32,000 nucleotides of DNA from Cupriavidus necator. GTDB taxonomy: Bacteria; Pseudomonadota; Gammaproteobacteria; Burkholderiales; Burkholderiaceae. How positions within the stretch are numbered: position 1 is the stretch's first letter; each line of letters starts with the position of its first letter. The DNA lies in NCBI RefSeq assembly GCF_016127575.1, contig NZ_CP066019.1, forward strand, positions 1,950,001-1,982,000, read 5' to 3'. This document shows positions 1 through 16,987 of the stretch, piece after piece. A model generated the notes under the pieces. The model had not been told where the DNA came from. It saw only the letters and a program-made list of their open reading frames with translations, and did not search any database. The position numbers were made by a program, and so were the translations under genes.

Positions 1-1219
1 TCAGTGAGCCGCCGATGGCCAGCGCAAGCTGGTGCGCAATCGCCAGGCCCAGGCCGGTGCCGCCGGTCTCCCGGTTGCGCGATGCCTCAAGCCGGACAAA
101 CGGCTGCAGCACGGACTCCAGCTGCTCAGCCGGGATGCCGGGCCCGCGGTCGAGCACGCTGATGGTCACCGCGCCGCCGTCCTCGCGGTGCACGCTCAGC
201 TCCGCCGCCCCGCCGAACTTGAGGGCGTTGTCGGTCAGGTTGGTCAGGATGCGGCGCAAGGCGTGCGGGCGCGTGTCGAGGGTGCCGCCGGCACGCTGCA
301 GGATGGTGACGGCCTTGCCGGTGTCCTGGTAGTCGTAGACCAGGCTCTCGACGAACGAGCCGATGTCGATCCGCGACGGCGTCTCGCCATCGCCATGCAT
401 GGCGCGCGCGTAGGCCAGCCCCTCCTTCACCAGCGTTTCGATCTCGGTGAGGTCTTGCACCAGCTTGCGCTTTTCCTCAGAGTCTTCCGTCATTTCTGCG
501 CGCAGCTTCATCCGCGTGATCGGCGTCTGCAGGTCGTGGGAAATCGCGGCCAGAATCTGCACGCGCTCCTCGACAAAGCGGGCAATGCGTTCGCGCATGG
601 CATTGAATGCGCGCGCGGCGCGCACCAGTTCGGTGGGCCCGGTCTCGCCCAGCGGCTGGGTCCTGGCATTCGGGTCGAGCGCGTCGGCGGCATTGGCCAG
701 CGCCACCAGCGGGCGGATCGCCAGGCGCACGCCAAGCCAGCAGCACAGGATCAGCAGCAGCAACTGGATAAGCAGCACATAAGGCAGCCATTGCGCGACC
801 GGCGTCGGCTTCGGATGCACGTCGATGGTCAGCGGGCTGCCATCGCTGAGGGTCAGGTGGGCCTGCATGCGCTTGCCCTGGCCGGGGATGGACTCGACCC
901 TGACCGGGAAGCGGCCGCCGCTCGCTTCCATGATCCGGTCGGCAACTTCCGTGGCCTGCGCGGACATCTCTGGCACGCCCGGCAGCCCCGGCCCCAGGAT
1001 GTATTGGTAGGCGCCGCGATTCACGTGGCGCAGCCACTGCGGGCGCTCCGCCGCGGGCAGGCGGTCGAGGATGGCGATCGAGGTGGAGACGTCGGTCTCC
1101 AGGGTGCCGAGCATGACCTTGCGCGCGGTAATGTAGCGCTCGGCAAACAGTACGCCGAACGACAGGCCATGGGCGACGATGAGGCCGGCCAGCAGGATCA
1201 GGAACAGCCGCGCGCCCAT
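1..1219 (-). CDS. Sensor histidine kinase, EnvZ-like (3' end cut by window edge)
   Basis: Absent from the ORF track because no stop lies in the window. The reverse frame opens at ATG 1219..1217 (MGARLFLILLAGLIVAHGLSFG...). It contains an H-box AAISHDLQTPITRM, an N-box LTNLTDNALKF, and G-boxes DRGPGIP and GGTGLGLAIA. It runs off the window at nt 2 (...LALAIGGSL). The start lies 29 nt downstream of the response-regulator stop. Confidence 0.85.
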   Translation of the reverse strand, partial: MGARLFLILLAGLIVAHGLSFGVLFAERYITARKVMLGTLETDVSTSIAILDRLPAAERPQWLRHVNRGAYQYILGPGLPGVPEMSAQATEVADRIMEASGGRFPVRVESIPGQGKRMQAHLTLSDGSPLTIDVHPKPTPVAQWLPYVLLIQLLLLILCCWLGVRLAIRPLVALANAADALDPNARTQPLGETGPTELVRAARAFNAMRERIARFVEERVQILAAISHDLQTPITRMKLRAEMTEDSEEKRKLVQDLTEIETLVKEGLAYARAMHGDGETPSRIDIGSFVESLVYDYQDTGKAVTILQRAGGTLDTRPHALRRILTNLTDNALKFGGAAELSVHREDGGAVTISVLDRGPGIPAEQLESVLQPFVRLEASRNRETGGTGLGLAIAHQLALAIGGSL

Positions 1220-1248
1220 CGTACGGGGCCAGGGCAAGGCACGGAGAT

Positions 1249-1992
1249 TCACTGGCGTGCCTCCCGGATCTCCACGGGCGTCGAGAAGACATAGCCCTCG
1301 CTGCGCACGGTCTTGATGTAGCGGGGCTCGCGCGCGTCGTCCCTGAGGTGCTGGCGCAAGCGGCTGACCAGCAGGTCGATCGAGCGCTCGAACATTTCCG
1401 CTTCGCGGCCCTGCGTGAGGCTGAGCAGCTGGTCGCGGTTGAGCACGCGCTGCGGATGGTCGACAAAGACGCGCAGCAGCCGGTATTCCGCGCCGCTCAG
1501 CGCGACGATGACGCCATCCTGGTCAATCAGGTGGCGCGCGGTGGTGTCGAGCTGCCAGTCGCCAAATGCAAGCAGCTGCCCCGCCTCGGTGATCTGCAGG
1601 TTGGGCGGAAGCATCCGGGTCCGCCGCAGCACCGCCTTGATGCGGGCCAGCAGCTCGCGTGCGGCGAAAGGCTTGGCAAGATAGTCGTCGGCGCCCATTT
1701 CCAGGCCGATGATGCGGTCGGTCTCGTCGCTGCGCGCGGTCAGCATCAGCACCGGGGTGGCCTTGTGCTTGCCCGCCCGCAGTTCACGGCACAGCACCAG
1801 GCCATCGTCGCCCGGCATCATCACATCCAGCACGATCAGGTCGACGCTGTTCACGTCCAGGAACGACCGCATGTGCCGCCCGTCAGGCACCACGGTAACG
1901 CGCAAGCCGTTCTTGGTGAGGTAGGTTGAGACCAGTTCACGGATTTCGCGGTCGTCATCCACGATCAGGATGTGGTCGGTGTGTGCTTCCAT
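1249..1992 (-). CDS. OmpR-family (OmpR-like) DNA-binding response regulator
   Basis: Track ORF 1249..2103, trimmed to the internal Met MEAHTDHILIVDDDREIRELV. Receiver domain motifs DD...D...K are present, and a winged-helix C-terminus (RYIKTVRSEGYVF) closely resembles E. coli OmpR. Confidence 0.9.
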   Translation of the reverse strand: MEAHTDHILIVDDDREIRELVSTYLTKNGLRVTVVPDGRHMRSFLDVNSVDLIVLDVMMPGDDGLVLCRELRAGKHKATPVLMLTARSDETDRIIGLEMGADDYLAKPFAARELLARIKAVLRRTRMLPPNLQITEAGQLLAFGDWQLDTTARHLIDQDGVIVALSGAEYRLLRVFVDHPQRVLNRDQLLSLTQGREAEMFERSIDLLVSRLRQHLRDDAREPRYIKTVRSEGYVFSTPVEIREARQ

Positions 1993-2099
1993 CGGCGTCA
2001 CCTTGGCAGATTGATTGAAAACCGCCAGGCGCGGCGCCGGGCACCGAAAGATTAACGCAATACGGCGCGACGGGTATTCCCCCATCGCGCCGTCGGGTA

Positions 2100-6604: not shown

Positions 6605-6732
6605 CTGACGGCTCGCGGACGCGCGCGGCCTTTACACCACCTTCCCCGGGGCGCGCGGTATCCGGCAAGCGCTCCGGCCGCCGCGCGCCTCCTCCCTGCC
6701 GCCTACGCCAGCAGGCGCCTCCCATGGTCCTT

Positions 6733-6846
6733 TTGTATCGCTATGTATCAAGCACAGGGGACGATACGTGCCCTGACAGAAACAGGGTCTCCACGCTATA
6801 GCGCAGATACACCGGTTTCCTTTAATGCATCTCGTGGACCGACGGC
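6733..6846 (+). promoter_or_regulatory. Conserved non-coding block upstream of small repeat-protein gene (copy 1)
   Basis: Homologous to 14886-14999 (about 74 of 114 positions identical in my manual alignment). Shared blocks: TGTATC direct repeats (6734-6739, 6744-6749), ACGATACGTG (6761-6770), CAGATACA (6804-6811), AATGCAT (6824-6830), and CGTGG.CCG.CGGC. Confidence 0.45.
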
Positions 6847-6910
6847 ATGCGTCGACAAGACGATCCCCCGGCCGCGCAGTTCAACCCAGACCTCAAGGAA
6901 ACCGACCAAG

Positions 6911-7219
6911 ATTACCGATCTCACCAAGCGCATTGTTCTCGCCCTCGCCCTGGCAGCTGCCGCCGCCGGCGCCCAGGCCGCCGGTCCCGGTGCGCGCGAT
7001 CCGTTCAGCGAAGGCGCACGTTCCGTGCAGGACGCACGCAACGCATTCACCGACGGCGCCCGCGCCGTGCAGGACGCACGCGACCCGTACACCGAGGGCG
7101 CGCGCAATGTCGACCCGTACGACAAGGGTGCACGCATCCTGGCCGGCTGGGACCGCACGGGTCCGTCCGCTGATCCGGCGCGCAGCTTCGATCCCTACCA
7201 GGACGGCGCCCACGCCTGA
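6911..7219 (+). CDS. Small secreted tandem-repeat protein, DP[FY]x[DE]GAR repeats (copy 1; start codon uncertain, possibly ATT)
   Basis: Track ORF 6743..7219. Signal peptide KRIVLALALAAAAAGAQA|AGPG, then the repeats ARDPFSEGARSVQD / ARNAFTDGARAVQD / ARDPYTEGARNV / DPYDKGAR ... DPYQDGAHA. Paralogous to 15063-15374. AAGGAA Shine-Dalgarno at 6895-6900, but no ATG/GTG/TTG before the signal peptide. ATT at 6911 is the only start-like codon. Confidence 0.6.
   Translation: MTDLTKRIVLALALAAAAAGAQAAGPGARDPFSEGARSVQDARNAFTDGARAVQDARDPYTEGARNVDPYDKGARILAGWDRTGPSADPARSFDPYQDGAHA
6992..7135 (+). repeat. In-frame tandem repeats (42/42/36/24 nt) encoding the DP[FY]x[DE]GAR units
   Basis: Direct reading: three to four successive units with the GGCGC(A/G/C)CG core (GAR), preceded by GA(T/C)CC(G)T(T/A)C (DPF/DPY). 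Confidence 0.7.
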
Positions 7220-13712: not shown

Positions 13713-14648
13713 TCAGTCGATCGGCGGCTTCGGGAAGGTCTGCTCGCCGGGCTCGAGCGTGAAATCGAACGCCAGTGTGTAGAACGGCGCCGGCACATCG
13801 CCCCACGGGCTGGGGCCTTGATGGTGCAGCCGGAGATCGCCAACCAGCTGCCGATGCACGCCGAACGTGACATCGGATTCCAGCTTGTCCGGCGCGTCGG
13901 CAAACACCTGGGTGACGAGCGTCCGGTAACCCGGCGCCGCGACGATGAAATGGATATGCGCCGGCCGGTACGGATGGCGTTGCTGCTCGGCCAGTAGCGT
14001 GCCTACCGGGCCGTGGGTCGGCACGGGATAGCCGGCAGGCCGTACCGTGCGAAAGTGGTAGCCGCCGCTTTCATCGGTATGGAAGCAGCCGCGCAGGTTG
14101 CGGTCGGGCTGGGCCGGATCCTGGTTGTCATACAGTCCCACCGGCGACGCCTGCCAGATCTCGACCAGCGCGCCTGGCAGCGGCGTGCCATCGGTCGCCC
14201 GCACGGTGCCGCTGACCAGCAGCGGCAAGCCAGGCGCGTCGTCCTGCACCACGCAGTCACCGCAGTCATAGCGCGGCGCGTTGGCGCGATAGAACGGGCC
14301 CAGCAGCGCGCCGGGCGTGCGCCCGTCCCTGGTGCTGTTATTCATGACGGTCACCAGCGTCGACAGCCCCAGCACGTCGGCAGCCAGCACAACCTCGTTG
14401 TGTTTGGCATTGGTCGCATGGCCCAGGCTGGCGATATACCCCAGGGCAAGCTCGAATTCCTCGTCGGACAGCCGCACCTCGGACAGGAACCCGTGAAGGT
14501 GCCGCACCAGGGAATCCATGATGAAGCGCAGGCGGGGATTGGCGGTATTGGCCATGGCCGCCTGGACCACGCCTGTCACCGAGTGTTCGTCCTCGATCAG
14601 CGCCAGACGCTCGCCTTGTGGCGCCTGCCGCTCGCTGGAAGTTTCCAT
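13713..14648 (-). CDS. Intradiol ring-cleavage dioxygenase (hydroxyquinol/catechol 1,2-dioxygenase family)
   Basis: Track ORF 13713..14666, trimmed to METSSERQ (AAGGAGG SD 6 nt upstream). N-terminal helical domain (NPRLRFIMDSLVRHLHGFLSEVRLSDEEF). C-terminal domain carries LLGPFY, GLYDNQ, RPAHIHF (Tyr/His iron ligands). Confidence 0.9.
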   Translation of the reverse strand: METSSERQAPQGERLALIEDEHSVTGVVQAAMANTANPRLRFIMDSLVRHLHGFLSEVRLSDEEFELALGYIASLGHATNAKHNEVVLAADVLGLSTLVTVMNNSTRDGRTPGALLGPFYRANAPRYDCGDCVVQDDAPGLPLLVSGTVRATDGTPLPGALVEIWQASPVGLYDNQDPAQPDRNLRGCFHTDESGGYHFRTVRPAGYPVPTHGPVGTLLAEQQRHPYRPAHIHFIVAAPGYRTLVTQVFADAPDKLESDVTFGVHRQLVGDLRLHHQGPSPWGDVPAPFYTLAFDFTLEPGEQTFPKPPID

Positions 14649-14702: not shown

Positions 14703-14885
14703 GGTCGAAGTTGGTCACCGCCACGACTAGCAACGGCTGCCGTTCAACCAGAATCACAATCAAAACAAGGGCGTACGGAGGATTTTCGGGAGAAACCCTA
14801 GGTGCATGCAGAGGCGCAGAATGTGGCGCATAAGCCTGTCCGAGTCCCCTGCCGATGCGGCTCCCCAGCCCGTTCGCGCATGAAT

Positions 14886-14999
14886 TTGTACCCGTCTGTA
14901 TCACGCAGCTGCAACGATACGTGTTTCGACAGAGACACCCCTCACGCGCTACGGGCCAGATACATCGATCGCCTTAAATGCATTCCGTGGCCCGGCGGC
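14886..14999 (+). promoter_or_regulatory. Conserved non-coding block upstream of small repeat-protein gene (copy 2)
   Basis: Partner of 6733-6846. Shared blocks: TGTACC/TGTATC (14887-14892, 14897-14902), ACGATACGTG (14914-14923), CAGATACA (14957-14964), AATGCAT (14977-14983). Confidence 0.45.
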
Positions 15000-15062
15000 G
15001 ATCCTCAACAAAGCCAGTCCCTGCCGCGCAATACCGAACCCAAACCTTTAAGGAAGACGATC

Positions 15063-15374
15063 ATGACTACCCACAACATCGCCAAGCGCTTTGTCTTCGC
15101 CATCGCCCTGGTTGCCGCCGCTGCCGGTGCGCAGGCCGCCGCACTGTCCCAGCCGGGCGCGCGAGACCCTTTCACCGACGGTGCCCGCTCCGTGCAAGAG
15201 GCACGCAGCCCGTACAGCGACGGCGCGCGTGCCGTCGACCCGTTCACGGACGGTGCGCGCAACGTCGATCCGTACTACGACGGCGCACGCACCCTGTCCG
15301 GCCTGGACCGCACCGGCGTTTCAGCGGACCCGGCGCGCAGTGTCGACCCCTATCTTGACGGCGCCTACGCCTGA
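15063..15374 (+). CDS. Small secreted tandem-repeat protein, DP[FY]x[DE]GAR repeats (copy 2)
   Basis: Track ORF 14802..15374, trimmed to the ATG at 15063 with an AAGGAAG SD 6 nt upstream. Signal peptide MTTHNIAKRFVFAIALVAAAAGAQA|AALSQPG. Repeats ARDPFTDGARSVQE / ARSPYSDGARAV / DPFTDGARNV / DPYYDGAR ... DPYLDGAYA. Confidence 0.8.
   Translation: MTTHNIAKRFVFAIALVAAAAGAQAAALSQPGARDPFTDGARSVQEARSPYSDGARAVDPFTDGARNVDPYYDGARTLSGLDRTGVSADPARSVDPYLDGAYA
15159..15290 (+). repeat. In-frame tandem repeats encoding the DP[FY]xDGAR units (copy 2)
   Basis: Four successive units of 42, 36, 30 and 24 nt, read directly from the sequence. Confidence 0.7.
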
Positions 15375-15407: not shown

Positions 15408-15827
15408 ATGACCCGTATCGAAAAAGTGCTGTACACCGGCAAAGTCCACATCAGCGCAGGCGGACGCGACGGCGAAGCCCATAGCGATGACGGCCGGCTG
15501 AACCTTCAACTGTCCTCGCCGGGCACCAAAGGCCCGGGCACGAACCCGGAGCAATTGCTCGCCACGGGATGGTCGGCGTGCTTTATCGGCGCGATCGGGC
15601 TGGCCGCCGGCAAGATGAACGTGAAGCTGCCGGCCGAGCTTTCGGTCGACGCCGAGGTTGACCTGGGCATGGCTGGCGAGGCCTATTTGCTGCAGGCCCG
15701 GCTCAATGTCCACATCCCCGGCATCGACCGTGAAGTGGCCCAGGCACTGGTGGATACCGCGCACCGGACCTGCCCATACTCGAAGGCCCTGCACGGCAAC
15801 ATCCACGTCGAGACCAACCTGGTCTGA
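15408..15827 (+). CDS. ohr: Organic hydroperoxide resistance protein Ohr (OsmC/Ohr family)
   Basis: 139-aa ORF with an AAGGAG SD. Starts MTRIEKVLYTGKVHISAGGRDG. Both catalytic Cys contexts are present (GWSACFIGA and HRTCPYSKA). Confidence 0.95.
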   Translation: MTRIEKVLYTGKVHISAGGRDGEAHSDDGRLNLQLSSPGTKGPGTNPEQLLATGWSACFIGAIGLAAGKMNVKLPAELSVDAEVDLGMAGEAYLLQARLNVHIPGIDREVAQALVDTAHRTCPYSKALHGNIHVETNLV

Positions 15828-15837
15828 CACACACCGT

Positions 15838-15865
15838 GACCTGCCTGAGGCCAACCGGGCAGGTC
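15838..15865 (+). terminator. Hairpin between ohr and the downstream membrane-protein gene (possible attenuator)
   Basis: GACCTGCC (15838-15845) pairs with GGCAGGTC (15858-15865) around a 12-nt loop. No clear U-tract. Confidence 0.3.
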
Positions 15866-15886
15866 ATCTTCCGGAAGGAGGCTCCC

Positions 15887-16402
15887 ATGCCGAAGATTGG
15901 CATTTCGGTACAGGCTGCGGCACTGAATATCCCGCCAGGCACGTTCCATGGCATTACCCTGATCGGGGCCGTGGTGGCTGCCGTTACGACTTTCCTGACG
16001 CTCACCGCAGCGCTACCCGCCTGGGCCATGTTCCTTGGCTGGGTCGCATTCAACACAGGCTCGCAGACGGCGCGCGAAGGCGCAGCGAACCTTGCGGCAT
16101 TCCTGCTCGGCATCGTCTTCGGTGCTGCGACCGGACTGCTGATTGGATGGCTGACGCCGCGCTTCGGTGACCTGGCTACACCGCTCGCGGTGTTCGGCGA
16201 CGTGGTACTCGTGCTCAGCCTGCGCGCGCTGCCACGGATCAACAATCCGCTTGCCTATTTCCTTGGCCTGATCAGTTTCTTTGCTGCGAGCCAGCCACCG
16301 TCGCTGATGTTGTTAGGGGCGCTGGCCGCTGCCGGTGTGCTCGGCGCGATCGGCGCCGGTATCAGCAACGTGCTGCAGGCGCGACTGGCGCGCGCAGTTT
16401 GA
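15887..16402 (+). CDS. Inner-membrane protein, DUF1097-like (4-5 TM helices)
   Basis: Track ORF 15836..16402, trimmed to MPKIGISVQAAALNIP with a strong GGAAGGAGG SD. Highly hydrophobic with Gly/Ala-rich helices. The family assignment is from memory of YcdZ-like proteins. Confidence 0.75.
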   Translation: MPKIGISVQAAALNIPPGTFHGITLIGAVVAAVTTFLTLTAALPAWAMFLGWVAFNTGSQTAREGAANLAAFLLGIVFGAATGLLIGWLTPRFGDLATPLAVFGDVVLVLSLRALPRINNPLAYFLGLISFFAASQPPSLMLLGALAAAGVLGAIGAGISNVLQARLARAV

Positions 16403-16480
16403 GCCGGCTTGTCTGCGCCGAGCAGGCAACGCTCAGCCGAGCCGGCGCGGGATCGCCTATCGCTTTCACGCGCGCGCCCC

Positions 16481-16696
16481 TCAGACCACGTTGATCGTGA
16501 CGTCGATGTTGCCCCGCGTGGCCTTGGAATACGGACAGGTCTGATGCGCCTCGTGCGCCAGGGCCTCCGCGGTCTCGCGCTCCACGCCTGGGACGTGCAC
16601 GTTGAGGCGCGCCTGCAGGCAATACGCATCGCCCGCCATGCCGAGGTCGACTTCGGCGTCGATGGCCACGTTCTCTGGCAGTGCAATCTTTATCTT
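16481..16696 (-). pseudogene. Ohr paralogue remnant (C-terminal ~70 codons only)
   Basis: KIKIALPENVAIDAEVDLGMAGDAYCLQARLNVHVPGVERETAEALAHEAHQTCPYSKATRGNIDVTINVV aligns with residues ~69-139 of the intact Ohr at 15408-15827. The N-terminal half, including the first catalytic Cys, is missing. Confidence 0.8.
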
Positions 16697-16987
16697 CCTG
16701 GCTGCCAGGATGCGCGCCGTTTCAACGCGCAGCTGCTCGACTGCACGTGCGGGTGATTGACCGGTGTTCAGCCGGAACTCGCGGCCGAAGTGGCGTGGGC
16801 TCATATGCACGGAATCTGCGAGCCTTTCAACCGAGAGGTCTTCGTGCAGGTGGGTTCGCCGAAGATTCGCAGGAATGCCCGCCGCATGCGTTCGGGTCGG
16901 TGAAGCCCGTCAGGCTGGCGATGCGCTCGACGGTGAGTCGATCTGCGTCTATCAGGGTTTCTTCGCCCCTGCGTGGAACACGACGTT
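16697..16987 (-). pseudogene. AraC/GlxA-family HTH fragments (frameshifted, permuted order)
   Basis: Three reverse frames give RRGEETLIDADRLTVERIASLTGFTDP / ERMRRAFLRIFGEP (HTH-2-like), followed by HLHEDLSVERLADSVHMSPRHFGREFRLNTGQSPARAVEQLRVETARILAA (HTH-1-like). The latter is fused in frame to the Ohr fragment (track ORF 16481..16810). Confidence 0.7.

Follow-up and report, generated by a model that had tools for sequence, protein, structure and literature searches.

The stretch of DNA analyzed here (the window, 32,000 nucleotides) comes from chromosome 2 of Cupriavidus necator H16 and carries, on its forward strand, two short open reading frames (ORFs) for secreted repeat proteins that we assign to the CopQ-like family. 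ORF A (6908 to 7219; frame read from 6911, stop codon at 7217 to 7219) occupies the locus annotated in a longer form as H16_B1791. ORF B (15063 to 15374, equivalent to 2039626 to 2039937 of AM260480.1) encodes 103 amino acids from an ATG start codon. An earlier reading of the same letters, hereafter the original prediction, had placed the two reading frames at 6911 to 7219 and 15063 to 15374 and called them paralogues of the same architecture. Both were found there in the frames given. Their products have five repeat units each and are clear paralogues (BLASTP E = 2 × 10−36), with 71% identity between the mature parts. The G+C content at third codon positions (GC3) was 0.78 to 0.80 in ORF A and ORF B versus 0.54 to 0.63 in their in-frame upstream extensions, and the ratio of nonsynonymous to synonymous substitution rates (dN/dS) against orthologues was 0.12 to 0.36 for the window genes. 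We conclude from GC3 and dN/dS that both are true coding sequences under purifying selection.

Each product consists of a signal peptide and a repetitive mature chain. Read from 6911, ORF A translates as ITDLTKRIVLALALAAAAAGAQA (signal peptide, 6911 to 6979, forward strand) followed by AGPGARDPFSEGARSVQDARNAFTDGARAVQDARDPYTEGARNVDPYDKGARILAGWDRTGPSADPARSFDPYQDGAHA (mature part), and ORF B as MTTHNIAKRFVFAIALVAAAAGAQA (signal peptide, 15063 to 15137, forward strand) followed by AALSQPGARDPFTDGAR...DPYLDGAYA. The signal peptides were read from the sequence by inspection and by alignment across 21 members, in which that of ORF A aligns with 20 family members. Both have a K/R n-region, an Ala/Leu/Val h-region, and AQA at positions −3 to −1, bearing out the AxA signal peptide that had been proposed. 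The ORF A signal peptide contains no Cys, and hence no lipobox, and no twin-Arg motif. The mature chains are likewise as described earlier, with ∼80 residues made up almost wholly of short repeats, no Cys, and a predominance of Ala, Asp, Gly, Arg, and Pro; Met is also absent, and each chain has 7 aromatic residues. Four tandem units in ORF A (DPFSEGAR, NAFTDGAR, DPYTEGAR, and DPYDKGAR; 6998 to 7135, forward strand), spaced by 14, 14, and 10 residues, are followed by a spacer module conserved in the family alignment, ILAGWDRTGPSADPARSF, and a C-terminal unit, DPYQDGAH (together 7136 to 7213, forward strand). The forward-strand counterparts in ORF B are the tandem units at 15165 to 15290, located by motif positions, a spacer at 15291 to 15344, and a last unit at 15345 to 15368. 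ORF A contains the strict motif DP[FY]x[DE]GAR two times and ORF B three times; a loosened form, [DNS][PA][FY]x[DEK]GA[RHY], is found five times in each. When each mature sequence was shuffled, 0 of 100,000 shuffles reached 5 units (maximum, 1).

These features extend across the subfamily, for which we compiled 116 units from 26 proteins. The unit consensus is (A-R)-D-P-[YF]-[TS]-[DE]-G-A-R-S-V, with Gly conserved in 116/116 units, Ala in 113/116, and Arg in 108/116. Position 1 is D, S, or N, and position 5 is D or E; at position 3, each of the 116 units has Y or F. A period of 14 residues was counted 58 times and one of 10 residues 24 times, and the units number 2 to 10 per protein. A second module, xAGxDRTGxSAxPARS, stands before the last unit, DPYxDGA, and is duplicated in longer relatives. 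Overall composition is 11% Arg, 0.3% Lys, 0.3% Met, 0.9% His, and 0% Cys. The C-termini (7202 to 7216 in ORF A, 15357 to 15371 in ORF B, and those of relatives) end in D-G-A-x-A-COOH, as AYA, AHA, ANA, ALA, or ARA; this small, nonpolar, and strikingly conserved end might be recognized by a PDZ-domain protease. One orthologue, P0014 from Cupriavidus sp. UYMSc13B, has a garbled middle section (…DARVPSTRSRTRAQRGSVLRRAR…) that fits a frameshift and a compensating shift inside the repeats and may illustrate their instability. Near-identical units that vary in number and mostly end in Arg (108/116), together with the conserved D-G-A-x-A terminus, could also be expected of a precursor cut at the conserved Arg into many DP[YF]TDGAR peptides that signal or chelate. 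However, no protease, modification enzyme, or exporter is conserved beside CopQ-like genes, and the AGxDRTGxSAxPARS spacer, superfluous in a simple precursor, is conserved as well. We consider such processing highly improbable.

Comparison with CopQ, CzcJ, and MmmQ, a lead given in the original prediction, identified the family. ORF B matches the CopQ prototype of plasmid pMOL30 (L048, 6359 to 6595; BLASTP E = 3 × 10−15, 38% identity over 81 residues), whose gene sits between copH and copL. The homology search returned 177 relatives, of which the named ones are nearly all from Cupriavidus and some carry the label "copper resistance protein CopQ." The CopQ-like family was described by Janssen et al. 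in 2010 by a signal peptide and an RDxxTDG motif repeated three to four times with defined spacers; it is confined to Cupriavidus and Ralstonia and strongly metal induced in C. metallidurans (PMC2864759). ORF B has the similarity to the prototype, and both ORF A and ORF B have the signal peptide, the repeated motif (at least three to four copies), and the restriction to the two genera, which held for 46/46 genome loci and for 16/16 and 145/145 plasmid and chromid records. On these sequence features, they are members of the known CopQ-like family of Cupriavidus and Ralstonia. Because that family had already been described, the novelty of the proteins as a family is low, and the newness implied at first does not stand (PMC2864759). 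The original prediction had named as its own counterevidence an already characterized family with known function: the first half applies, since the family has a name, and the second does not, since it has no known function. C. metallidurans CH34, whose genome paper described the family, has 21 copQ homologues, and the family has been called "still poorly characterized" (PMC7563307); two CopQ-like proteins, PrsQ1 and PrsQ2, are needed for evolved silver resistance in C. metallidurans (PMC7380067).

Genomes carry several paralogues: two copies fall within the 32 kb of the window, and C. lacunae S23 has 6 loci or more. A profile search of 1.84 billion representative proteins yielded just 241 clusters at E ≤ 1 × 10−3. 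Long matches in the representative library (P0134, P0149, P0230, and others) were set aside as unrelated repeat proteins. Neither protein had a match in Pfam-A, NCBIfam, PADLOC, or PDB sequences, where the searches returned noise alone (E ≥ 0.76). CopQ-like proteins of ∼100 amino acids are widely named "hydroxyquinol 1,2-dioxygenase" in NCBI and UniRef (P0001, P0002, P0004, P0007, P0011, P0016, P0017, and others). A genuine intradiol dioxygenase gene (Dioxygenase_N plus Dioxygenase_C; 13713 to 14648, reverse strand), which lies outside the system, is the divergent neighbor of ORF B, suggesting an annotation slip that was then propagated; this gene is the likely source of the wrong name.

Structure prediction and composition agree on the state of the mature chains. 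AlphaFold, run with a 21-sequence alignment, gave a predicted local distance difference test score (pLDDT) of 53.5 and a predicted template modeling score (pTM) of 0.18, with a helix at residues 3 to 25 only, that is, in the signal peptide. The chains fall on the disordered side of the charge-hydropathy plot, have an isoelectric point (pI) of 4.4 to 4.9, and contain 73 to 77% disorder-promoting residues. These predictions indicate that the mature chains are intrinsically disordered. The earlier suggestion of a disordered periplasmic stress protein fits them, and it also fits the gene linkage described below.

When the DNA of the two loci was aligned, conservation extended over the ∼175 bp that precede the start codon. 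ORF A and ORF B differ in the reading frame into which these blocks fall, which marks the conservation as noncoding. Upstream of ORF A (6732 to 6907, forward strand), the blocks are a direct repeat, TTTGTATCGCTATGTATC (6732 to 6749); CGATACG (6762 to 6768); CTGACAGA (6773 to 6780); GCTATAG (6795 to 6801); AGATACA (6805 to 6811); CCTTTAAT, a candidate −10 element (6819 to 6826); CGTGG with a possible hairpin (6833 to ∼6884); and a Shine-Dalgarno sequence, AAGGAA (6895 to 6900). The region upstream of ORF B (14885 to 15062, forward strand) contains the direct repeat TTTGTACCCGTCTGTATC (14885 to 14902), CGATACG (14915 to 14921), TCGACAGA (14926 to 14933), GCTACGG (14948 to 14954), AGATACA (14958 to 14964), CCTTAAAT (14972 to 14979), CGTGG (14986 to 14990), and AAGGAA (15050 to 15055). 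Of the 26 subfamily genes, 24 keep the region, across numerous species of Cupriavidus and Ralstonia, and in relatives (L002 to L039) it lies about 170 to 190 nt ahead of the CopQ-like gene. Its elements follow the order TTTGTAY-N4-(T/A/C)TGTATC (the direct repeat, with a 10-bp period), CGATACG, (C/T)TGACA, and GCTAC-N6-GATAC, and then CCTTAAAT (a possible −10 element), CCGTGG, a variable GC-rich stretch, and the Shine-Dalgarno sequence AAGGAA.

The direct repeat marks these genes with high specificity. A position weight matrix of the 18-nt repeat found two sites in the window, one before ORF A and one before ORF B (∼32 bits each), and nothing else at 12 bits or above. A stricter pattern search of 445 kb of loci gave 20 matches, all 20 upstream of CopQ-like genes, and the matrix scan added one further site, in L039, preceding a DsbD/CcdA-family gene and a redoxin gene. 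The upstream region and its direct repeat are new and, apart from the single L039 site, specific to the CopQ-like subfamily. By blastn, the region was present in only 5 chromids and had no match in any CH34 replicon of the plasmid collection; a metagenome scan for the operator pattern returned 8 AT-rich chance matches and zero new regulon members. The best homologue on the CH34 chromid is from a different subfamily and has no copy of the upstream motif, so CH34 transcription-start data are not transferable to these genes. Searches of the whole window and of the upstream region against Rfam gave no match at gathering thresholds or at E ≤ 1. The AgrR box, ATKACANNNNTGTMAT (PMC7380067), was also compared by eye; only a TGACA half-site occurs in the upstream region, and the genes were therefore not assigned to the AgrR regulon.

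A possible GC-rich hairpin was also noticed downstream of CCGTGG (6833 to 6884 and 14986 to 15035), with a stem that varies by clade (GTGGCC/GGCCGC versus TGGCAGCG/CGCTGCCA). Single-sequence folds show a hairpin in most genes, and an ungapped stem test beat shuffles in ∼7 of 24 sequences; RNAalifold gave no consensus structure for the region. A hand-specified helix was 71.9% paired, versus 63.6% in shuffles and 29 to 47% when slid, and 4 pairs were changed on both sides. Since the helix was derived from the same sequences on which it was tested, the 5′ hairpin stays tentative.

ORF A departs from its relatives at the start codon. Position 6911 is a noncanonical ATT, and the ancestral ATG codon at 6908 to 6910 reads AAG in H16. 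The equivalent codon is ATG in 25/25 other subfamily genes compared. It is also ATG in strains L058 to L062, whose proteins are identical or 2 residues apart, whereas four independent H16-lineage assemblies all have AAG; GCA_051903405.1 is an example of an assembly with ATG. Between 6743 and the ORF A signal peptide, the frame contains no ATG, GTG, or TTG. The annotated H16_B1791 start, the ATG at 6743, falls inside the upstream direct repeat (TTTGTATCGCT-ATG-TATC), and the extension that it would add has a noncoding GC3 of 0.54; on these grounds, we regard the 158-amino-acid H16_B1791 model as an artefact. For the secreted form of ORF A, the weak ATT at 6911 is the only possible start. One explanation is that ORF A is a crippled or dead allele in which the T-to-A change (ATG to AAG) abolishes normal initiation and leaves at most a trace at ATT, the 158-amino-acid protein not being made. 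The distribution of ATG and AAG, the lack of another in-frame start, the position of the 6743 ATG, and the conservation of the A and B upstream regions in different reading frames all argue for it. Against it, ATT is known to initiate translation at low efficiency, as in the textbook example of infC; the ATT is preceded, at a distance of 10 nt, by a good Shine-Dalgarno sequence, AAGGAA; and the rest of ORF A is intact, with one pipeline calling a 102-amino-acid product from the ATT start (L057). We lean slightly toward the dead-allele explanation, under which ORF A in H16 is probably a recent, near-null allele that is barely translated.

In H16, ORF A and ORF B have as their closest neighbors catabolic and regulatory genes with no relation to them, and neither lies in a metal-resistance cluster. 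Downstream of ORF B, after a gap of 33 nt, lies ohr, encoding an Ohr-family organic hydroperoxide peroxiredoxin (15408 to 15827, forward strand; OsmC domain; TIGR03561, 150 bits versus a cutoff of 88.85). An Ohr gene adjoins the CopQ-like gene in 13 of the 46 loci: besides ORF B itself, ohr follows 30 to 80 nt downstream on the same strand in 9 loci (L002, L006, L008, L010, L012, L015, L016, L018, and L039), and an Ohr paralogue lies upstream in 4 (L017, L019, L027, and L030), with an OhrR-like MarR regulator nearby. TlpA-like periplasmic redoxins often come after ohr across the loci. No terminator-like site was found between ORF B and ohr; given the shared strand and the short gap, the two genes are probably cotranscribed. 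Searchable literature contained no mention of a CopQ-Ohr link. Past ohr, a DUF1097 gene and a truncated AraC-like fragment (∼15836 to 16850; 3825 to 4787 in L050) occur in H16-type assemblies but are missing from this place in L051 and L053, a difference that resembles a strain-specific insertion or deletion.

The same neighborhoods point to a candidate regulator. An OmpR/EnvZ-like pair stands immediately upstream of the CopQ-like gene and ohr in five species (L010, L012, L016, L018, and L039), and the window contains an orthologue of that regulator (1252 to 2001, reverse strand; 77 to 89% identity to the regulator in the five species) with its partner, an EnvZ-like sensor histidine kinase (2 to 1258, reverse strand), cut by the window edge. 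In H16, the pair has been moved 5 to 13 kb off the two CopQ-like genes. The best match of the window regulator is OmpR, and it scores 143 bits against TIGR01387, the heavy-metal CopR/CzcR type, versus a cutoff of 279. OmpR-family regulators usually bind direct repeats whose period is ∼10 bp. The period of the repeat and the conserved adjacency lead us to infer that the OmpR/EnvZ-like system controls the upstream region, making the regulator at 1252 to 2001 its candidate regulator. A gene directly downstream of the kinase in five species, a candidate operator specific to the subfamily, and a small secreted product without enzymatic features would also suit a periplasmic feedback modulator or cosensor of the EnvZ-like kinase in the style of CpxP and CpxA, induced by the system and then binding the periplasmic domain of the kinase or being titrated off it by damaged envelope components. 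We find this role improbable, since many paralogues lie far from two-component systems (at least 6 loci in C. lacunae and 21 homologues in CH34; PMC7563307), 2 to 10 repeat units would be unusual for a specific protein-protein partner, and Pfam gives no similarity to CpxP, Spy, or ZraP.

Taken together, we favor the explanation that the two genes encode CopQ-like, disordered, periplasmic, nonenzymatic stress effectors, with ORF B as the working copy, and give this account as a whole a probability of roughly 0.6. Transcription would be driven from the ∼175-bp upstream region, in which the direct repeat and the GnTAC repeats downstream of it most likely serve the OmpR/EnvZ-like system as its operator, and ORF B would probably be cotranscribed with the Ohr peroxiredoxin gene. 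Such cotranscription would place the subfamily in an envelope or oxidative-damage response and not in a dedicated metal-efflux cluster. The proteins would be exported by Sec, cleaved after AQA, and released into the periplasm as disordered chains of ∼8 kDa built of 10- or 14-residue units, (A-R)-D-P-[YF]-[TS]-[DE]-G-A-R-(S-V-Q-D), plus the AGxDRTGxSAxPARS spacer module. Their molecular action would most likely be stoichiometric, multivalent, low-affinity binding by the Asp/Glu pair, the aromatic residue, and the Arg of each unit, so that cationic toxicants or damaged envelope components would be shielded or buffered. With ORF A lacking its ATG and probably barely translated, ORF B would serve as the working copy in H16.

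A rival explanation is that the proteins are classical periplasmic metal buffers, efflux-assisting sponges in which Asp/Glu pairs, with Thr or Ser, chelate Zn, Cd, Ni, Co, or Cu(II). Acidic mature proteins (pI 4.4 to 4.9) and the loose likeness of the D-x-x-x-[DE]-G core to calcium-binding DxDxDG loops are consistent with it, as are the location of copQ, czcJ, and mmrQ inside the cop, czc, and ncc clusters of pMOL30, with strong metal induction (PMC2864759), and the need for PrsQ1 and PrsQ2 in silver resistance (PMC7380067). However, neither window gene lies within a metal-resistance cluster, and the linked regulator is of the OmpR/EnvZ type and far below the TIGR01387 cutoff (143 versus 279 bits). 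The near absence of His (0.9%), Cys (0%), and Met (0.3%) argues against binding of the soft metals Cu(I) and Ag(I), the conserved Arg of each unit largely neutralizes the carboxylates, the net charge is modest, and an aromatic residue invariably occupies position 3 of the would-be DxDxDG loop. We regard metal buffering as possible but unlikely for these genes.

Several points weigh against the stress-effector explanation too. The mature protein has a net charge of just −3 to −4 with an Arg in each unit and so is no obvious cation sponge, and the subfamily lacks the His of the CopQ prototype (DGGHS/DGAHS) as well as Cys and Met. The low AlphaFold confidence comes from a shallow, 21-sequence alignment, which suggests disorder and is no proof of it. 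The proposed link between the regulator and the upstream region comes from gene neighborhood and motif shape, and the two-component system in H16 lies 5 kb from ORF A and 13 kb from ORF B and is adjacent to neither. Neither locus yielded a site in a scan for sigma-70 promoters and terminators, and searching the literature for the H16 locus tags turned up no expression data.

The effector explanation can be taken further. The subfamily may be the signature output of an unrecognized envelope oxidative-damage regulon, with the repeat protein acting as an oxidation-resistant, multivalent shield. The EnvZ/OmpR-like system, through the TTTGTAY-N4-(T/A/C)TGTATC/GnTAC operator, would turn on the repeat protein together with Ohr and periplasmic thiol-disulfide proteins (TlpA-like and DsbD/CcdA-like). 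The protein, in which Arg, Tyr, and Asp abound and Lys, Cys, and Met are lacking, would then be no metal chelator but a shield, possibly condensate forming through Arg-aromatic contacts, that guards periplasmic or outer membrane components. This proposal is speculative, and we give it a small chance of being right; if true, metal induction in C. metallidurans would be secondary to envelope damage.

CopQ-like genes are among the most strongly stress-induced gene sets of the model metal-resistant bacterium C. metallidurans, and the family is required for evolved silver resistance, yet it has no Pfam or NCBIfam model, structure, or known mechanism. The subfamily described here offers three new handles on it: a highly specific, conserved putative operator upstream of the genes, beside a candidate OmpR/EnvZ-like regulator; a conserved, operon-like linkage to Ohr and periplasmic redox proteins, more suggestive of oxidative or envelope damage than of metal chelation; and an apparent natural knockout, through start-codon change, of one paralogue in H16, a strain in wide use, for which isogenic-like strains retain the ATG. 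Two annotation errors are also flagged, namely, the 158-amino-acid model of H16_B1791 and the name "hydroxyquinol 1,2-dioxygenase" on proteins of ∼100 residues.

Among known systems, DUF4148 (PF13663), which the original prediction had put forward for comparison, resembles these proteins in its small size, signal peptide, and occurrence in Burkholderiaceae; however, it is not built of DPxxDGAR repeats, and Pfam gave no match to it for either protein even at E ≤ 10. The DxDxDG calcium-binding loops of EF-hand-like, dockerin, and thrombospondin type 3 proteins loosely resemble the D-x-x-x-[DE]-G core: both are short, tandemly repeated acidic loops in which Asp occupies position 1, position 5 is acidic, and position 6 is always Gly. 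The window motif departs from them, with Pro at position 2 and Phe or Tyr at position 3 in 116/116 units, so that the third ligand of such a loop is missing, and Pfam gave no match. Hydrophilins and KGG-repeat proteins of the YciG/YmdF type are likewise short, Gly-rich, charged, disordered tandem repeats that are stress induced. Those proteins are cytoplasmic and Lys rich, whereas the window subfamily is secreted, has 0.3% Lys, and is rich in Arg and Asp, with no sequence match between the two.

The periplasmic stress proteins Spy, CpxP, and ZraP of enterobacteria are likewise small, secreted, and nonenzymatic, and they act stoichiometrically, as the CopQ-like proteins probably do. They are induced by envelope or metal stress through two-component systems and are sometimes encoded beside the kinase. 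They differ in being folded, α-helical dimers that bear LTxxQ motifs. The products of ORF A and ORF B are predicted disordered tandem repeats and show no sequence relationship to them, with no Pfam match. The nearest relatives are the CopQ-like proteins of C. metallidurans (CopQ [Rmet_6121], CzcJ, MmrQ, MmmQ, MmtQ, MmsQ, and PrsQ1/PrsQ2), with which the window proteins share small size, a Sec signal peptide, the absence of Cys, an RDP[FY]TDG core repeated at least three times with fixed spacers, and confinement to Cupriavidus and Ralstonia. The CopQ prototype has Gly/Ala-His-Ser after the core (DGGHS), whereas the window subfamily has Ala-Arg. The subfamily is further distinguished by its own signal peptide (MTTxIAKRFVFAIALVAAAAGAQA), its AGLDRTGVSADPARS spacer, and its conserved upstream region; the window genes lie outside metal-resistance clusters, and the subfamily is linked not to CopRS, CzcRS, or AgrRS but to ohr and an OmpR/EnvZ-like system.

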